From: Escherichia coli
GTDB lineage: Bacteria; Pseudomonadota; Gammaproteobacteria; Enterobacterales; Enterobacteriaceae
DNA length: 64,000 nt
NCBI RefSeq assembly: GCF_003790525.1
Contig: NZ_CP033635.1
Direction: 5' to 3' (one strand)
Shown here: piece after piece, positions 11,881 through 19,159 of the stretch
How the letters are laid out: every line of letters begins with the position of its first letter
Numbering within the stretch: the stretch's first letter is position 1
Translations under genes and position numbers: made by a program
The notes under the pieces: model-generated
Seen by the model: the letters and a program-made list of their open reading frames with translations, nothing else
Told to the model about the DNA's origin: nothing
The model's database searches: none

Positions 11881-11899
11881 AACTCAATCCTTAGTCTGA

Positions 11900-12060
11900 T
11901 GAACTTGACGTCGGGCGTTGTCGCTTTCGCTTACCTTTCGTTTCATTTCACTTGGTGATGTCTTTCGTTGATTAAAATCTATAGAAAAGAAACTGAAAGT
12001 TCAATGGAGAAAAAAGAAATAAAACGAAATTTGTGATCATTGAAAGAAAAGACAAGGGAA
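11900..12060 (-). promoter_or_regulatory. agaS promoter region with AgaR operator-like repeats
   Basis: Repeated CTTTCGTTTCATTTCAC / GAAACTGAAAG / AAAACGAAAT motifs upstream of agaS on the minus strand, resembling AgaR (DeoR-type) operators. Confidence 0.6.
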
Positions 12061-12099
12061 GATTAAAGGATTGCGTGATAACGTCGCTATGTTCACCGA

Positions 12100-12160
12100 T
12101 TGCCGGATGCGGCGTACCGTAGGTCGAAGAAGACGCGTCAGCGTCGCATCCGACACCGCT
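12100..12160. repeat. REP palindromic element immediately downstream of agaA
   Basis: gccggatgcggcgta...gacgcgtcagcgtcgcatccgac inverted REP pair. Confidence 0.7.
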
Positions 12161-12230
12161 GCACAGATCAAAAAGAAAGAAAAAGAAAGGCCTTACGGGG
12201 GAAGTGAAGGCCCAATAAAGGAGCAAACCA

Positions 12231-13364
12231 TCAAAACGAAGCTAATTGACCCTGAATCCAGATTTGTTGCACATGCAGCCCGCTATCCAGCGCAACGACG
12301 CTGGCGCGTTTGCCCGGTTTAAGCGATCCCAGAACACCATCAACACCCAGCATACGCGCCGGATGCAGCGATGCCATATGGATGGCTTCCGCAGGCGTTA
12401 CGCCCGTCAACTCGACCATGTTGCGCACTGCCGCATCGACAGACAGCGTACTGCCCGCCAGCCCACCGGACGCGGTACGGACAACGCCATCGTGCATCTG
12501 CACTTCTTCACCACATAACGTATAGCGACCATCCGGCATCCCGGCTGCCTGCATCGCGTCGGTGATCAGCACGATTCTCTCTTTCGCACAGCAACAACAC
12601 AGCGACATCGCCGCCGGATGTACATGATGACCATCGGCTATCAGTTCCAGCCAGGCGCGCTTGTCCGTTAATCCCGCGCCAACCATCCCCGGTTCGCGGT
12701 GATGTAAACCTGTCATCCCGTTATAGCAATGCACCAGGCCGTCGGCACCAGCGTCAAACGCGGCACGGGTTTGTTGCCAGGTCGCCGCGCTATGCCCCAG
12801 CATCACCCGTACGTTTTGCTGTTTAAGATAGCGGATGGCCTGCAATGCCCCTTCTTTTTCTGGTGCCAGCGCTACTACGCGCAAGGTGTGCTGAGAAACG
12901 GCAATCAATTGATCCAGCTCGGCAATTTCCAGCTCGCGAAACAGCTCCGGCGGATGCGCGCCTTTATTCTGCGGCGTGAAGTACGGTCCTTCGAGATAAC
13001 TCCCCAGCACTTGCGCACCAGGTCCGCCACGCTGGCAGCGTAGAGCAATACGTTTCAGCGCCGCATGAATGGTATTAAGCGGCGCGGTTACGGTGGTCGG
13101 TAACCAACTGCCGACACCTTCGCGTGCCTTGTGCATTGCCAGCTTGTCGAGCGCATCCGGCGCATCATCCATTACATCAACGCCCGCACCACCGTGTACA
13201 TGGGTGTCGATGTAAGCGGGACAGAGCAGTTCCGCATCGCGTTCAGTCACGCCCACTGGAATCGGTTCGATTGCTGCGATTACACCGTCAGCAATACGCA
13301 ACTGATGGTCATCGAGCCATCCCTCTTCAGTCAGCAGCCTTCTGGCGCGCAGAACGTGTGTCAT
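12231..13364 (-). CDS. agaA: N-acetylgalactosamine-6-phosphate deacetylase AgaA, full length (377 aa)
   Basis: ORF 12231-13385 trimmed to MTHVLRARRLLTEEGWLDDHQL; NagA-like amidohydrolase; intact, unlike the truncated K-12 allele. Confidence 0.9.
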   Translation of the reverse strand: MTHVLRARRLLTEEGWLDDHQLRIADGVIAAIEPIPVGVTERDAELLCPAYIDTHVHGGAGVDVMDDAPDALDKLAMHKAREGVGSWLPTTVTAPLNTIHAALKRIALRCQRGGPGAQVLGSYLEGPYFTPQNKGAHPPELFRELEIAELDQLIAVSQHTLRVVALAPEKEGALQAIRYLKQQNVRVMLGHSAATWQQTRAAFDAGADGLVHCYNGMTGLHHREPGMVGAGLTDKRAWLELIADGHHVHPAAMSLCCCCAKERIVLITDAMQAAGMPDGRYTLCGEEVQMHDGVVRTASGGLAGSTLSVDAAVRNMVELTGVTPAEAIHMASLHPARMLGVDGVLGSLKPGKRASVVALDSGLHVQQIWIQGQLASF

Positions 13365-13795
13365 ATTCCTTCCTCGACCGGACATTCCTCATGGCAGCGA
13401 CCAAGTTCGTCCACCAGACTGGTTAGCCCACGGTGTCCACACTCCAGCGCCTGCACACGGAACTCTTCACCGCTTAACCCTTCGCGTTCCAGCACCATTT
13501 CCAGTAATAGTTGCAAATTTGTGCCGGTGATCACTTCACAGCCCGGTTTTTGCATCGCCAGCGTTGAAGCTACGCGAAACGGCGTGCCGCCCAGCAAATC
13601 CGTCAGAAAAACAATGCCGTCTTCACAATCCAGTTGGACGATGGCCTCTTCAAGCTGCGATGTAAGCAGCGCGGTGCTTGAGGTTTCCGGAAAATCGATG
13701 GCGATAAACTGCGATTGCTCACCGAGAATTTGCTTCATTGCTTTTTCCATGCCGCTGGCAAATCCGCCATGCCCTGTCAAAATAATACTTAACAT
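13361..13795 (-). CDS. agaF: PTS N-acetylgalactosamine-specific EIIA component AgaF (144 aa)
   Basis: MLSIILTGHGGFASGMEKAMKQILG (mannose-family IIA); 4-bp overlap with the agaA start. Confidence 0.9.
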   Translation of the reverse strand: MLSIILTGHGGFASGMEKAMKQILGEQSQFIAIDFPETSSTALLTSQLEEAIVQLDCEDGIVFLTDLLGGTPFRVASTLAMQKPGCEVITGTNLQLLLEMVLEREGLSGEEFRVQALECGHRGLTSLVDELGRCHEECPVEEGI

Positions 13796-13812
13796 CTAAT
13801 ACCTCATTGTAT

Positions 13813-14697
13813 TTAAAGGAAATGGCAGAATTTACCGACGATGCCGAGAACCACGGTAACCGCAATCAGGCGCAGCGGACTCCAGCCGCGGCGTACCAGC
13901 CAGAACATGGTCAGGGTGTAGACCAGCGGTAAGAAGGCTGGCATCAGTTTGTCGATAACATCAGCCTGTAACTTAACCACTGCGTCGCCCGCGGTGATTT
14001 CCAGCGTGGTGCTTAAACGAACATAGGTTGCCACCAGCGCGCCGATTACCGTCATCCCAACGATAGATGCCGCATGGCCGACTTTTTTGGTATTTGCTTT
14101 AATGAGTGGAATCGCCGCCACGCCCATGCGGTAAGCATAATGCGCCAGACCAAAACGCAGCCCCAGGTGCACCACGTTGAACAGCACAATAAAGACGACA
14201 GCGCCAAGAATAGAGCCTTGTAGCGCGAGGCTTGCACCTATCCCGCCACAAATCGGCAGTAGCGTTAGCCAGAACATCGCATCGCCAATCCCGCCGAGCG
14301 GCGCACCGACGGCAATTTTGGTGCTCTGAATACTGTTAACGTCCTGCTTAGAACGCTCCATCGCAAGGATAATGCCGATAACAAACGTCACCAGAAACGG
14401 ATGGGTATTGAAGAAACCCATATGCCCCTTCATGGCGCGCGCCAGGTCGCGTTTATTAGTGTGGATCTTTTTCAGAGCAGGCAGCAGACCGTACAACCAG
14501 CCAGAAGCCTGCATACGTTCGTAGTTAAAAGACGCTTGTAACAGCATGGAACGCCAGGCGACGCGGTTGATATCTTTTTTCGTCAGCTCTGCGCCAATGC
14601 TCTGATCTTCATACACGTTTTCATTGACACCTGTCAGCAGTGTTTCTTCGTTTTCACTGACGTTCGGCAGGGTAGTTTGATTAGATGCCATCTTCAA
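13813..14697 (-). CDS. agaE: PTS N-acetylgalactosamine-specific EIID component AgaE
   Basis: ORF 294 aa; ...RVAWRSMLLQASFNYERMQASG IID signature; paralogue of AgaD. Confidence 0.9.
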   Translation of the reverse strand: MKMASNQTTLPNVSENEETLLTGVNENVYEDQSIGAELTKKDINRVAWRSMLLQASFNYERMQASGWLYGLLPALKKIHTNKRDLARAMKGHMGFFNTHPFLVTFVIGIILAMERSKQDVNSIQSTKIAVGAPLGGIGDAMFWLTLLPICGGIGASLALQGSILGAVVFIVLFNVVHLGLRFGLAHYAYRMGVAAIPLIKANTKKVGHAASIVGMTVIGALVATYVRLSTTLEITAGDAVVKLQADVIDKLMPAFLPLVYTLTMFWLVRRGWSPLRLIAVTVVLGIVGKFCHFL

Positions 14698-15460
14698 ATT
14701 CCTCTTTCTGTGCCGCAGGTTGAGTCGGTTCAGGAGATTTACGCAGCAAGTCGATCAGCGCCATCGCCAGCGCGGCGGCAGCAATAGCCAGCACCGGTAA
14801 CTTGAGCCAGGCTGCGGCAACAAAGCCCAGGATGAAGTAGGGGATGTAGACGTTTTTCATCATGATTTTCAGCAGCACGGCAAAACCGATTGCTGGCATG
14901 ATGCCACCCGCGACGCCGAGGCCGTCGATTAATCGTTGCGGCAGGACATCAATGATGGTTTTGGCATGTTCTGCGCCGAAGTAGATAGGCAGGAAAGCGC
15001 AGAGAAAATAGAACGTGCCGAGTGCCAGCAATGCCAGATAGTTCACGCGTTCAATGCCGCGAGTATCGGCGTTCTCCGCCATCCGGTCGCAGCGGGACAT
15101 CACGCCGGACATCACCGAGAACAGGAAGGTAATCCCCATCTGTACTGCGACAGCGAAAGGTACGGCGACACCGACCGCGACATCCGGTTTCACGCCAGTA
15201 GTAATGGCAAACGCCGTGCCGACGATAGTACCGATAATCACGTTAGGCGGTTGTGCGCCTGCCAGCGGGGCCAGCCCCATCCACACCAGTTCCAGCGTAC
15301 CGCCGGTTAAAATACCGGTATGCAGATCGCCAAGTACCAGTCCGACCAACGGGCCGAGGACCACCGGGCGGTGCATATGGGTTAGGCCGTTAAACATATC
15401 CAGGCCAGCGATAAAGGCGATAATGCCCAACGCGAATGCCTGCAACAGACTGATTTCCAT
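14681..15460 (-). CDS. agaW: PTS N-acetylgalactosamine-specific EIIC component AgaW, full length (259 aa)
   Basis: ORF 259 aa, IIC paralogue of AgaC; intact here. Confidence 0.9.
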   Translation of the reverse strand: MEISLLQAFALGIIAFIAGLDMFNGLTHMHRPVVLGPLVGLVLGDLHTGILTGGTLELVWMGLAPLAGAQPPNVIIGTIVGTAFAITTGVKPDVAVGVAVPFAVAVQMGITFLFSVMSGVMSRCDRMAENADTRGIERVNYLALLALGTFYFLCAFLPIYFGAEHAKTIIDVLPQRLIDGLGVAGGIMPAIGFAVLLKIMMKNVYIPYFILGFVAAAWLKLPVLAIAAAALAMALIDLLRKSPEPTQPAAQKEEFEDGI

Positions 15461-15470
15461 GATGAATCCC

Positions 15471-15944
15471 TCAAAGTAATTTAAAGAGGTCCACTGCAGG
15501 CTCTGTTGGGACGCCCTGAACGAAGCATTCCACCCCAGCGGCTTTCAGGTCGTTAAATGCTGCGATATCACCCGCATCCACAGAAACCGTTTTGGCGATT
15601 TGTTGCTTGCCATTGGCGTAGTGCATATTGCCAACGTTAATGCGATTCACCGGAACGCCACCTTTCACCAGCGTCAGGAAATCGGCAGGTGTTTTACAAA
15701 CCAGCAGGATTTTCTGTCGATCGGCGGCGCGATGAATGTTGTCGATGACTTTTTGCAGCGTCCAGAAACGTACGGCGATCCCTTCTGCCAGTACCATTTC
15801 CATCAGGTTTTGTTGTACCGGATCTTCGGCAACCTCATCGTTGGCTACCAGCACCAGATTTGCCCCCGCAAATCCGACCCACTGAACGCCGACCTGACCG
15901 TGAATCAAACGCTCATCAATCCGGCTTAAAACAATATTTGGCAT
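15471..15944 (-). CDS. agaV: PTS N-acetylgalactosamine-specific EIIB component AgaV (157 aa)
   Basis: ORF 15471-15980 trimmed to MPNIVLSRIDERLIHGQVGVQW. Confidence 0.9.
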   Translation of the reverse strand: MPNIVLSRIDERLIHGQVGVQWVGFAGANLVLVANDEVAEDPVQQNLMEMVLAEGIAVRFWTLQKVIDNIHRAADRQKILLVCKTPADFLTLVKGGVPVNRINVGNMHYANGKQQIAKTVSVDAGDIAAFNDLKAAGVECFVQGVPTEPAVDLFKLL

Positions 15945-15966
15945 AGCGTGTTCCTCTTTGTTTTGC

Positions 15967-17247
15967 TTATTGGCCTTCACAGGCTGTGTGGTACTGCGCC
16001 AGGATGTCCTGAATATGGTTGATAATGAGTTCCCGTGGTGTTGGCTGCAGCTCGCCGGAGCGAACTTTCACGTATTGCAGCGGCAAATACTGGCTGATCA
16101 GCGGTAGCGGAATTGGTGAATCCGCCAGATTACGAACCAGATGAGCGAAAGCGTCATCAATCTGGCTGTCCGGCCAGTAATAGCGCACGCGATCCGAGTA
16201 GCTATAACCACGCGCCAGACGACGCGCGTTGCCGTCACCGTGGTAGTGGCTTTGCCAGTATTCCGGGCGGTCGAGCATCACGTTTTCCAGCACCTGACGC
16301 AGACCAGAACAGGCTTTTGCTGGTACCAGTTCTTCTTCAATCGCCGCCAGAGAGAACAGAGCTTCACGCAGAGCAAAGGTCAGCGCCGGGCCAACTTTCA
16401 GAATGGCAAAGTGGTCAATCACCAGCTGGCGCAGCGATTGCGGCGTTTGGTAATCAGTAGAGTGCGCTTCGAAAATCAGCGTTTCGTAGTTTTCGACCAT
16501 CTGGCTTAAGGCGGTCGCTTTGACGGGCTGATAATCAATAACGTTGGTGTGATCGAATTCGACGCCGGGTTGAACCACCAGGGCAATAATGCGTGGCCAG
16601 ATGGCACTCAGACCTTGCTTTTCAAAGGCGTGACGATGGGCTTCCAGCGTGGCGCGGGCGGCATCCGGCGTGGTGACCGCCAGCTCGCTTAAGGTTTCAT
16701 GCGCGCCGCCAGGTACCGGTACTTCGGTACCAATGACATACTCCAGATCGGCCGCGCCAAAATGTTCACGGCAGGTTTCTTCCGCCACTTTCGCCAGACG
16801 AGCGGCGCGTTCGGCCACGATGTCATCAGTTAAGGGAATCGGATCGTCCTGACAGGACATGCTGCAATCAAGGTGAATTTTTTTGAATCCTGCCGCCACG
16901 TAGCTTTTAATCAAATCATCGGCATTGGCCATTGCCTGAGCGGCAGGCAGGTTTTGCCAGCGGTTTGGCCCCAGATGGTCGCCACCCAGAATCAACGCAT
17001 CCTGTGGGAAATTCAACGAGTCGGCGAGCTGACAAACAAAGCCGCGAAAATCGGCGGGCGTCATTCCGGTATAACCGCCGAACTGGTCCACCTGATTGGA
17101 GGTTGCTTCAATCAGTAACGGCGTTTGGTTTGCACTGGCGTAGCGGATTGCAGCTTCCAGCACCAGCGGATGTGCGGAACAAACGGCATAAATCCCATTT
17201 GTTTTGCCCTCTTTGTGCTGTCTCACCATTTCTGTCAGATGTTTCAC
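15967..17247 (-). CDS. kbaZ: Tagatose-bisphosphate aldolase non-catalytic subunit KbaZ (426 aa)
   Basis: [37 protein letters not shown]... Confidence 0.92.
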
Positions 17248-17495
17248 TTTCCTCTCCAGTTCAGATTACTGCGATATTAATCTTTCGTTTTGTTTCAGTT
17301 GATACTGCGCCATGGTGAGATAAAAATAAAACGAAAGATAATGGTTTTCTGATCTGATTCACAAAAGAAACATAATGAAAGCCACTGAAACGAGAGTAGC
17401 TTGCGCCAATGGGTAAGGTGGGCTTGCATTTGCTTAATAGAAAGGCGTTAATAGGCAAAACGAAATGAAACGAAAGTTTTACGAAAGGACTTACT
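17248..17495. promoter_or_regulatory. Divergent kbaZ / agaR control region with multiple AgaR operator-like repeats
   Basis: ctttcgttttgtttcag, aaaacgaaagata, ctgaaacgagagt and aaaacgaaatgaaacgaaagttttacgaaagg repeats between the divergent kbaZ and agaR starts. Confidence 0.65.
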
Positions 17496-18305
17496 ATGAG
17501 TAATACCGACGCTTCAGGTGAGAAGCGAATGACAGGCACCAGCGAGCGACGAGAACAGATCATTCAGCGTCTGCGACAGCAAGGGAGTGTGCAGGTTAAC
17601 GATCTGTCGGCATTGTATGGCGTATCTACTGTGACGATCCGCAACGATCTGGCGTTTCTGGAAAAGCAGGGGATCGCTGTGCGTGCCTATGGTGGCGCGT
17701 TGATCTGCGATAGCACAACGCCGTCAGTCGAGCCATCAGTGGAAGATAAAAGCGCACTGAACACCGCGATGAAACGCAGCGTTGCGAAAGCTGCCGTTGA
17801 GTTGATTCAGCCTGGTCATCGGGTGATCCTCGACTCCGGGACCACCACTTTTGAGATTGCTCGTCTGATGCGCAAGCACACCGACGTAATTGCGATGACC
17901 AACGGTATGAACGTGGCTAATGCGTTGCTGGAAGCGGAAGGCGTTGAGCTGCTGATGACCGGGGGGCATTTGCGCCGTCAGTCGCAATCTTTTTACGGTG
18001 ATCAGGCTGAGCAATCGCTGCAAAATTACCACTTCGATATGCTGTTTCTTGGTGTAGATGCGATCGATCTGGAGCGCGGCGTCAGCACGCATAATGAAGA
18101 TGAAGCCCGTTTAAACCGTCGGATGTGCGAAGTTGCGGAACGGATCATCGTGGTCACCGATTCCAGTAAGTTCAACCGTTCCAGTTTACATAAGATCATT
18201 GATACTCAACGTATCGACATGATCATTGTTGATGAAGGCATTCCTGCGGATAGTCTGGAAGGACTGCGAAAGGCTGGGGTTGAAGTGATTCTGGTCGGGG
18301 AGTGA
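17496..18305 (+). CDS. agaR: DeoR-family transcriptional repressor AgaR of the aga regulon (269 aa)
   Basis: N-terminal HTH (..[26 protein letters not shown]..) and DeoR C-terminal sugar-phosphate-binding domain. Confidence 0.93.
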
Positions 18306-18311
18306 GAAAGG

Positions 18312-18347
18312 GTGCCCGCTGGTCAACACGAATGCGTTCGGCGGGCA
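18312..18347. terminator. Hairpin between the convergent agaR and yhaV genes (bidirectional terminator)
   Basis: tgcccgctggtcaacacgaatgcgttcggcgggca inverted repeat. Confidence 0.6.
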
Positions 18348-18359
18348 TTGTGAACACCA

Positions 18360-18824
18360 TCAATGGGTTTCTTCTGTCTCTCGGGTGAGGGTTTCCCAGT
18401 CGGCAGGAGGATGTCCTCTTTTTAACATTTTGCTGAATACGGTATAGGCATCTGTTTTTTTACCGTAGGTGCGCAGCGTGTTTTCATCGTTCATCCATCC
18501 CAGAATGATGACTTTCTCTTTTTCACTATAACGAAAGAAGAGACGATAACGACCAGCACCAAATTTTACCCGTGACCAGTCTTTATTTTTCCCAGAGCCT
18601 AACGACTTGCCATGACGGAATGCCGGTGATGATGGATTGACCGTGATATGCTCCTCAATCACTTTATGGACTACCGCCAATAACTTTGTGGCGGCTTTTC
18701 TCTGATAATTTTCAGGATCTTTTCCCTTTAATGTCTCGACTTCGGCAACTAAAGCGTCGTAGGTTTCCTGAAAACAGGGATGAGCATATAGCGCCCAACC
18801 ATTAACCCTTTGTGGAAAATCCAT
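18360..18824 (-). CDS. yhaV: Type II toxin YhaV (ribosome-dependent mRNA interferase, 154 aa)
   Basis: ORF 154 aa directly downstream of prlF with overlapping stop/start. Confidence 0.9.
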   Translation of the reverse strand: MDFPQRVNGWALYAHPCFQETYDALVAEVETLKGKDPENYQRKAATKLLAVVHKVIEEHITVNPSSPAFRHGKSLGSGKNKDWSRVKFGAGRYRLFFRYSEKEKVIILGWMNDENTLRTYGKKTDAYTVFSKMLKRGHPPADWETLTRETEETH

Positions 18825-19159
18825 TATTCGTCGTCGCCAATCTCATCGTCAATGTTGACGTCCATGCCAGCGACAAGTTTCTTTCCTTGTTGAGTGTCGA
18901 ATGGACGAGTTTTTTGCGGGTTGTTCTGGATATCTGCATCCAGAAAACGCAAAAATGCATTCATAGTATGATCCTCCTGTTCATCTCCCAGTCGGCACAT
19001 AAATACTTGCCCACCAGGCAGAATTTCGTAATGAATGCTGTCCAGGCCTGGCTTCAGTTTTAAGGCCTCACGCACTGGCGCGGGGATAGTTGTTTGTCCG
19101 CGTATCGTGACCTTTGATTCAGTGGTCAGTACAGCGTTAGAGCGAGCATTAGCGGGCAT
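18824..19159 (-). CDS. prlF: Antitoxin PrlF/SohA (AbrB/SpoVT-like swapped-hairpin fold, 111 aa)
   Basis: MPANARSNAVLTTESKVTIRGQTTIPAPVREALKLKPG...; acidic C-terminus IDDEIGDDE. Confidence 0.9.
   Translation of the reverse strand: MPANARSNAVLTTESKVTIRGQTTIPAPVREALKLKPGLDSIHYEILPGGQVFMCRLGDEQEDHTMNAFLRFLDADIQNNPQKTRPFDTQQGKKLVAGMDVNIDDEIGDDE

Follow-up and report, generated by a model that had tools for sequence, protein, structure and literature searches.

The control region governed by the repressor AgaR in the N-acetylgalactosamine cluster of Escherichia coli is already known, having been characterised two decades ago and reused since. AgaR regulates its own gene and, by binding directly, represses agaZ and agaS as well (PMC4694137); it binds in tandem to several repeats located in the intergenic gaps of the aga cluster (PMC5018945). 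Deletion of agaR in E. coli C increases the expression of agaA ~50-fold and that of agaS ~175-fold, while agaR itself goes up ~2-fold on GalNAc, with Aga-6-P as the likely inducer (PMC3668189). The expression of the Aga PTS, assayed through agaV and agaB, is likewise raised in an agaR loss-of-function mutant (PMC9628945). The repressor has also been taken out of its natural context, as the AgaR site CTTTCGTTTCATTTTCGTTT confers AgaR-dependent repression on a synthetic promoter in vivo (PMC8667592). The sequence that we have studied here is almost certainly the divergent kbaZ/agaR promoter region of this aga/gam regulon, and the repeats that it contains are, with the same high confidence, AgaR operators.

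The 64-kb stretch of DNA analysed (the window) is E. coli chromosome, and its positions 16800–18400 are 100% identical to strain SMS-3-5 and many other isolates; of 5426 complete E. coli genomes, 5317 contain this segment. According to both the open reading frames and the genes that RefSeq annotates in the identical sequence of SMS-3-5, positions 17248–17495 are exactly the 248-bp divergent intergenic region between kbaZ and agaR. On the minus strand, kbaZ (15967–17247, GTG start at 17247) is identified by its reading frame, the SMS-3-5 annotation and a Pfam GatZ_KbaZ-like match (E=5e-202); it is the first gene of the kbaZ-agaVWEFA operon. On the plus strand, the same three kinds of evidence identify agaR (17496–18305, ATG start) as coding for a DeoR-family repressor with HTH_DeoR (E=2e-21) and DeoRC (E=3e-55) domains, the gene for the cognate regulator lying at the locus itself. 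Downstream of the 3' end of kbaZ, the SMS-3-5 annotation places a complete agaVWEF-agaA followed by agaS-kbaY-agaBCD. The strain carries the intact 13-gene aga/gam cluster of the E. coli C type, as opposed to the 2.3-kb deletion form of K-12; this difference between E. coli C and K-12 has been described (PMC3668189). Within 12231–15980, agaV, agaW, agaE, agaF and agaA are all intact, agaA being annotated as nagA in SMS-3-5. A yhaV-prlF type II toxin-antitoxin pair lies directly 3' of agaR (18360–19159) and is convergent with it. A 100-amino-acid minus-strand reading frame that extends across the whole gap (17261–17563) was judged spurious because it covers the operator region as well as the start of agaR, and because the RefSeq record of the identical SMS-3-5 sequence leaves it unannotated. 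When used as a query against E. coli genomes, the 248-bp gap (17248–17495) matched 5828 places in 5321 records, with up to four places per genome and three places on plasmids, which implies that some genomes have extra full or partial copies of the control region.

With respect to K-12 MG1655, for which AgaR binding to this region has been reported, the gap is identical at 244 of 248 positions, the four differences (17310, 17382, 17406 and 17414) all falling outside the exact repeat copies. Given this near-identity, the results published for K-12 can be transferred to the present strain. Together with the identity of the flanking genes and the published deletion and binding data, it supports the autoregulation of agaR and the repression of the kbaZ operon by AgaR that the original prediction had proposed from the repeats.

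Those repeats are far too numerous to be fortuitous. The exact motif AAACGAAAG/CTTTCGTTT occurs three times in the gap, at 17282–17290 (minus strand), 17329–17337 (plus) and 17468–17476 (plus), and its sole further exact copy in the 64-kb window is located at 11935, in the agaA-agaS gap that holds the agaS promoter. Allowing one mismatch raises the number of copies in the gap to five, by the addition of AAACGAGAG at 17388 and AAACGAAAT at 17458. The original prediction of at least four motif copies is correct if such degenerate copies are counted but overstates the number of exact ones. Its tandem aaaacgaaatgaaacgaaagttttacgaaagg is present verbatim at 17457–17488, directly upstream of agaR, and ends 7 nt before the ATG. 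The gap has 37% GC compared with 50% for the window; we used 5000 dinucleotide-preserving shuffles of the gap itself as the null model. For the three exact copies, these shuffles gave a mean of 0.009 and a maximum of 1; for the five counted when at most one mismatch was tolerated, they gave a mean of 0.21 and a maximum of 3, so that a chance origin of the repeats is excluded. The operator unit appears as a run of TTTC(R) pentamers (TTTCRTTTYRTTTY...), and within sites the GAAA/TTTC elements follow each other at 5- or 10-bp steps.

The 24-nt AgaR consensus that Ray and Larson reportedly defined in 2004, WRMMTTTCRTTTYRTTTYNYTTKK, was scanned over the 64-kb window with up to three mismatches. It yielded six matches against 0.08 expected, divided equally between the kbaZ/agaR gap and that of the agaS promoter. 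The three matches of the latter gap (11932–11955, 12010–12033 and 12169–12192) constitute a sister AgaR operator cluster spanning 11932–12192, with an inverted pair (11936–11949 and 12016–12029) laid out as on the kbaZ side. This agaA-agaS gap (11881–12230) also contains a weak CRP-like sequence, TGTGATCATTGAAAGA, at 12032–12047. In addition, a GC-rich, REP-like imperfect palindrome (TGCCGGATGCGGCG ... CGTCGCATCCGACA) occupies 12101–12155, between the agaS-proximal and the agaS-distal AgaR-like sites.

In the kbaZ/agaR gap, the operator-like site nearest kbaZ, AATCTTTCGTTTTGTTTCAGTTGA (17279–17302, plus strand), shows three mismatches to the 24-nt consensus, contains an exact CTTTCGTTT and is conserved in the 80 sequences compared below. 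Within an inverted pair it makes up the left arm, and it overlaps the putative kbaZ -10 element and transcription start. The right arm is provided by AAATAAAACGAAAGATAATG (17324–17343, plus strand), a highly conserved site that includes an exact AAACGAAAG, with four mismatches to the 24-mer by hand count, participates in both inverted and direct repeats and lies over the putative kbaZ -35 element; the two arms, about 17280–17295 and 17324–17339, are 94% complementary. A third site, TGGCTTTCATTATGTTTCTTTTGT (17361–17384, minus strand), abuts a CRP-like site and has two mismatches to the consensus, compared with one in K-12 by hand count, owing to the C/T difference at position 17382 on its edge; it is identical over 19 nt in 57 of 80 sequences. 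The strongest operator of the gap, AAACTTTCGTTTCATTTCGTTTTG (17456–17479, minus strand), matches the 24-nt consensus without any mismatch, is conserved and lies over the putative agaR transcription start. Its core is the AgaR binding sequence listed in PMC8667592 (Table S3), apart from a one-base slip: with this slip allowed, CTTTCGTTTCATTTTCGTTT is the reverse complement of 17457–17476, which makes the site used in that study the 20-bp site beside the agaR start.

Two of the copies counted by the original prediction fare less well. The element tacgaaagga (17480–17489, plus strand) includes the agaR Shine-Dalgarno sequence (AAGGA) together with a CGAAAG of low conservation among genera: AAAGGA is kept in more than 90% of the sequences and the CG columns (17482–17483) in only 20–30%. 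To judge from these letters and their conservation, the ribosome-binding site of agaR accounts for most of the third tandem element, tacgaaagg. The AAACGAGAG copy at 17388–17396 is situated in a variable spacer and, like tacgaaagg, is poorly conserved across the other genera sampled.

We infer the promoter hexamers, the start sites and the step that each operator would block from the arrangement of conserved blocks around the operators. For kbaZ, the sequence, its conservation and its distance from the CRP-like site point to a -10 element within 17299–17308 on the minus strand, either TATCAA or CAGTAT, and to a putative start near 17292–17295. The CRP-like site, TCTGATCTGATTCACA (17348–17363), has a single mismatch to TGTGA-N6-TCACA. 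Its TCACA half hardly varies from genus to genus, four columns (T, both C and the final A) being the same in 80/80 sequences and the first A being present in 66/80; its left half is weak in most genera (TCCGA). The centre of this site would lie ~61 bp upstream of the putative kbaZ start (near 17294), and a location near -61 (-61.5) is the classical class I position for CRP. According to Ray and Larson in 2004, kbaZ transcription is said to depend on cAMP-CRP. The combination of CRP and DeoR-type repressor sites in the divergent gap of the aga cluster has also been remarked upon (PMC12226905).

For agaR, conserved blocks delineate a plausible core promoter at 17424–17452 on the plus strand, with TTGCAT (17424–17429) as -35, a 17-nt spacer that encloses a conserved GAAAGG (17440–17445), and GTTAAT (17447–17452) as -10, from which transcription may start near 17459–17460. 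A sigma-70 consensus scan of the gap called neither this promoter nor that of kbaZ; it missed the putative agaR promoter because the second position of its -10 is not A. Its only calls were two plus-strand candidates, at 17299–17327 and 17315–17342. We did not adopt them since the conserved TTGCAT/GTTAAT pair beside a perfect operator fits an agaR promoter better; they could represent an upstream agaR promoter. As for published transcription start data, the supplements of Kim 2012 make no mention of agaR, agaZ or kbaZ.

A comparison across genera provides further, independent evidence. Scanning one genome per species, we retrieved 80 loci with AgaR orthologues (81–98% identity), spread over ~25 Enterobacterales genera that range from Escherichia to Yersinia, Serratia, Ewingella and Mixta. 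In all of them (80/80), kbaZ is located divergently upstream of agaR, and the gap measures 249–251 bp in 69/80. The alignment of the 80 distinct gap sequences reveals conserved blocks at 17279–17309, 17311–17381, 17421–17431, 17437–17476 and the AAAGGA at 17484–17489. Across 79 orthologous loci, the repeat blocks, the CRP-like site and the promoter-like hexamers are all conserved. The motif TTTCRTTTY is ~184-fold more frequent in 79 orthologous gaps (16 per kb) than in their flanks (0.087 per kb over 425 kb), and matches to the 24-mer number 206 in the gaps and one in the flanks. From one block to the next the offsets hardly change (46, 20, 15, 15 and 20 bp), the 46-bp offset of the sites 17279–17302 and 17324–17343 recurring in 64 of 80 sequences. 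Between the two operator clusters, the spacer (17382–17420) is not conserved in sequence, but its length varies by just 1–2 bp among the ~25 genera, with an anchor-to-anchor distance of 59–62 bp in 66/80 sequences.

As already characterised, AgaR binds the repeated TTTCGTTT-type sites and thereby represses the N-acetylgalactosamine operon as well as agaR itself. On the kbaZ side, the cluster of three sites (17279–17302, 17324–17343 and 17361–17384) would bracket the kbaZ core promoter and the CRP site, covering roughly -8 to +16, -30 to -49 and -67 to -90 with respect to the putative start. Bound AgaR would cover the start and -10 as well as the -35 and lie on either side of the activator site, so that RNA polymerase and probably also activation through CRP would be blocked. 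On the agaR side, the cluster formed by GAAAGG (17440–17445) and the perfect site (17456–17479) would lie over the agaR -10 and start, with negative autoregulation as the expected outcome. Growth on N-acetylgalactosamine or galactosamine relieves the repression, the likely inducer being GalNAc-6-phosphate. The original idea of overlapping sites needs refinement, as the conserved sites fall into two clusters, each around one putative core promoter with ~40 bp of non-conserved DNA between the two, and not into a common overlapping set for both promoters.

This separation admits a more speculative possibility. The spacer length keeps the GAAA elements of the two clusters ~6, 8, 9 and 10 helical turns apart, and the maintenance of that length while the sequence drifts may reflect helical phasing or a cooperative bridging by AgaR. 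A single AgaR oligomer might then bridge both promoters by looping or wrapping, and autoregulation and operon repression would be mechanically coupled. We consider this rather unlikely, and we know of no demonstration of AgaR bridging.

A less specific origin of the repeats deserves attention given the composition of the region. They might be a by-product of AT-rich promoter DNA (UP-element-like sequences, A-tracts or sites for H-NS, Fis or IHF) and not specific operators, as the gap has 37% GC in a window at 50% and the motif itself is A/T-rich. However, the dinucleotide shuffles, which retain this composition, never attained the observed counts; the motif recurs only in the agaS promoter gap; its individual bases have been preserved in ~25 genera while the neighbouring spacer drifts; and published work documents AgaR binding, with specific footprints on these sites reported earlier in K-12, as well as derepression upon deletion of agaR. 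We regard this explanation as highly improbable. A specific operator could nonetheless mainly serve another DeoR-family repressor recognising a CTTTC/GAAAG core, such as GatR or a TagR-like protein, with AgaR in a secondary role. E. coli has several DeoR paralogues and the operators predicted for TagR in E. coli Nissle (CTTTCAAAATGAAAGTAAA) do share this core (PMC12226905), but agaR is adjacent and divergent to kbaZ in 80/80 loci, its deletion alone fully derepresses the operons (PMC3668189), and the site is functional with AgaR titration when placed in a synthetic circuit (PMC8667592). A leading role for another repressor appears very improbable as well.

The conserved blocks could also be thought to act in RNA, as a structured leader or a small RNA, and not as DNA operators. 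A weak terminator-like hairpin does exist on the minus strand (17402–17379), but it falls largely in the non-conserved spacer, and the conserved blocks are mostly upstream of the putative transcription starts; furthermore, an Rfam search of the region stayed far below threshold (best scores of 22.6 bits for a cut-off of 111 and 20.6 for a cut-off of 55). An RNA function is thus extremely improbable, and we interpret the repeats as AgaR operators.

As AgaR operators, they confirm that the strain has an intact, K-12-like AgaR control region before a complete cluster for GalNAc/GalN utilisation, which has little significance beyond annotation. The cross-genus footprint nevertheless offers a compact map of the repeat copies that are under selection and those that are not, and the constrained spacing of the gap could guide the design of AgaR-based expression switches or tests of cooperative binding.

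Several well-described control regions resemble this one to different degrees. Those of GlpR and DeoR have a similar general architecture to the AgaR gap, with oligomeric repressors that act through several repeated operators distributed across the promoter region alongside CRP. Their operator sequences are unrelated to those of AgaR. Looping between distant operators is documented for DeoR, and we are not aware of its having been shown for AgaR. The TagR region of E. coli Nissle 1917 is likewise a divergent gap between a regulator and its operon, controlled by a DeoR-family repressor through operators with a CTTTC...GAAAG core; as here, one of the operators covers the transcription start, and a CRP site lies upstream (PMC12226905). 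The resemblance of the tagatose cluster to the aga cluster was remarked by the authors of that study (PMC12226905). It differs in the regulator, the inducer (D-tagatose) and the operator sequence, and in having two predicted operators compared with five or six in the gap studied here. The reconstruction of AgaR regulons in Proteobacteria (Leyn et al. 2012, J Biol Chem 287:28047; RegPrecise), as summarised in PMC5018945, places tandem DeoR-type AgaR sites in the agaZ, agaR and agaS gaps, and our footprint of 80 sequences agrees with it to the extent of that summary. The detail on the conservation of spacing and gap length comes from the present analysis and stands beside that reconstruction as summarised there. 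The closest system of all is that of the K-12 AgaR operators at the agaR, agaZ/kbaZ and agaS promoters, reportedly described by Ray and Larson in 2004 (Mol Microbiol 51:813), which belong to the same locus and the same genes, with four substitutions in 248 bp and no apparent functional difference; what distinguishes the present strain is that these operators precede an intact 13-gene cluster, the one in K-12 carrying a deletion.
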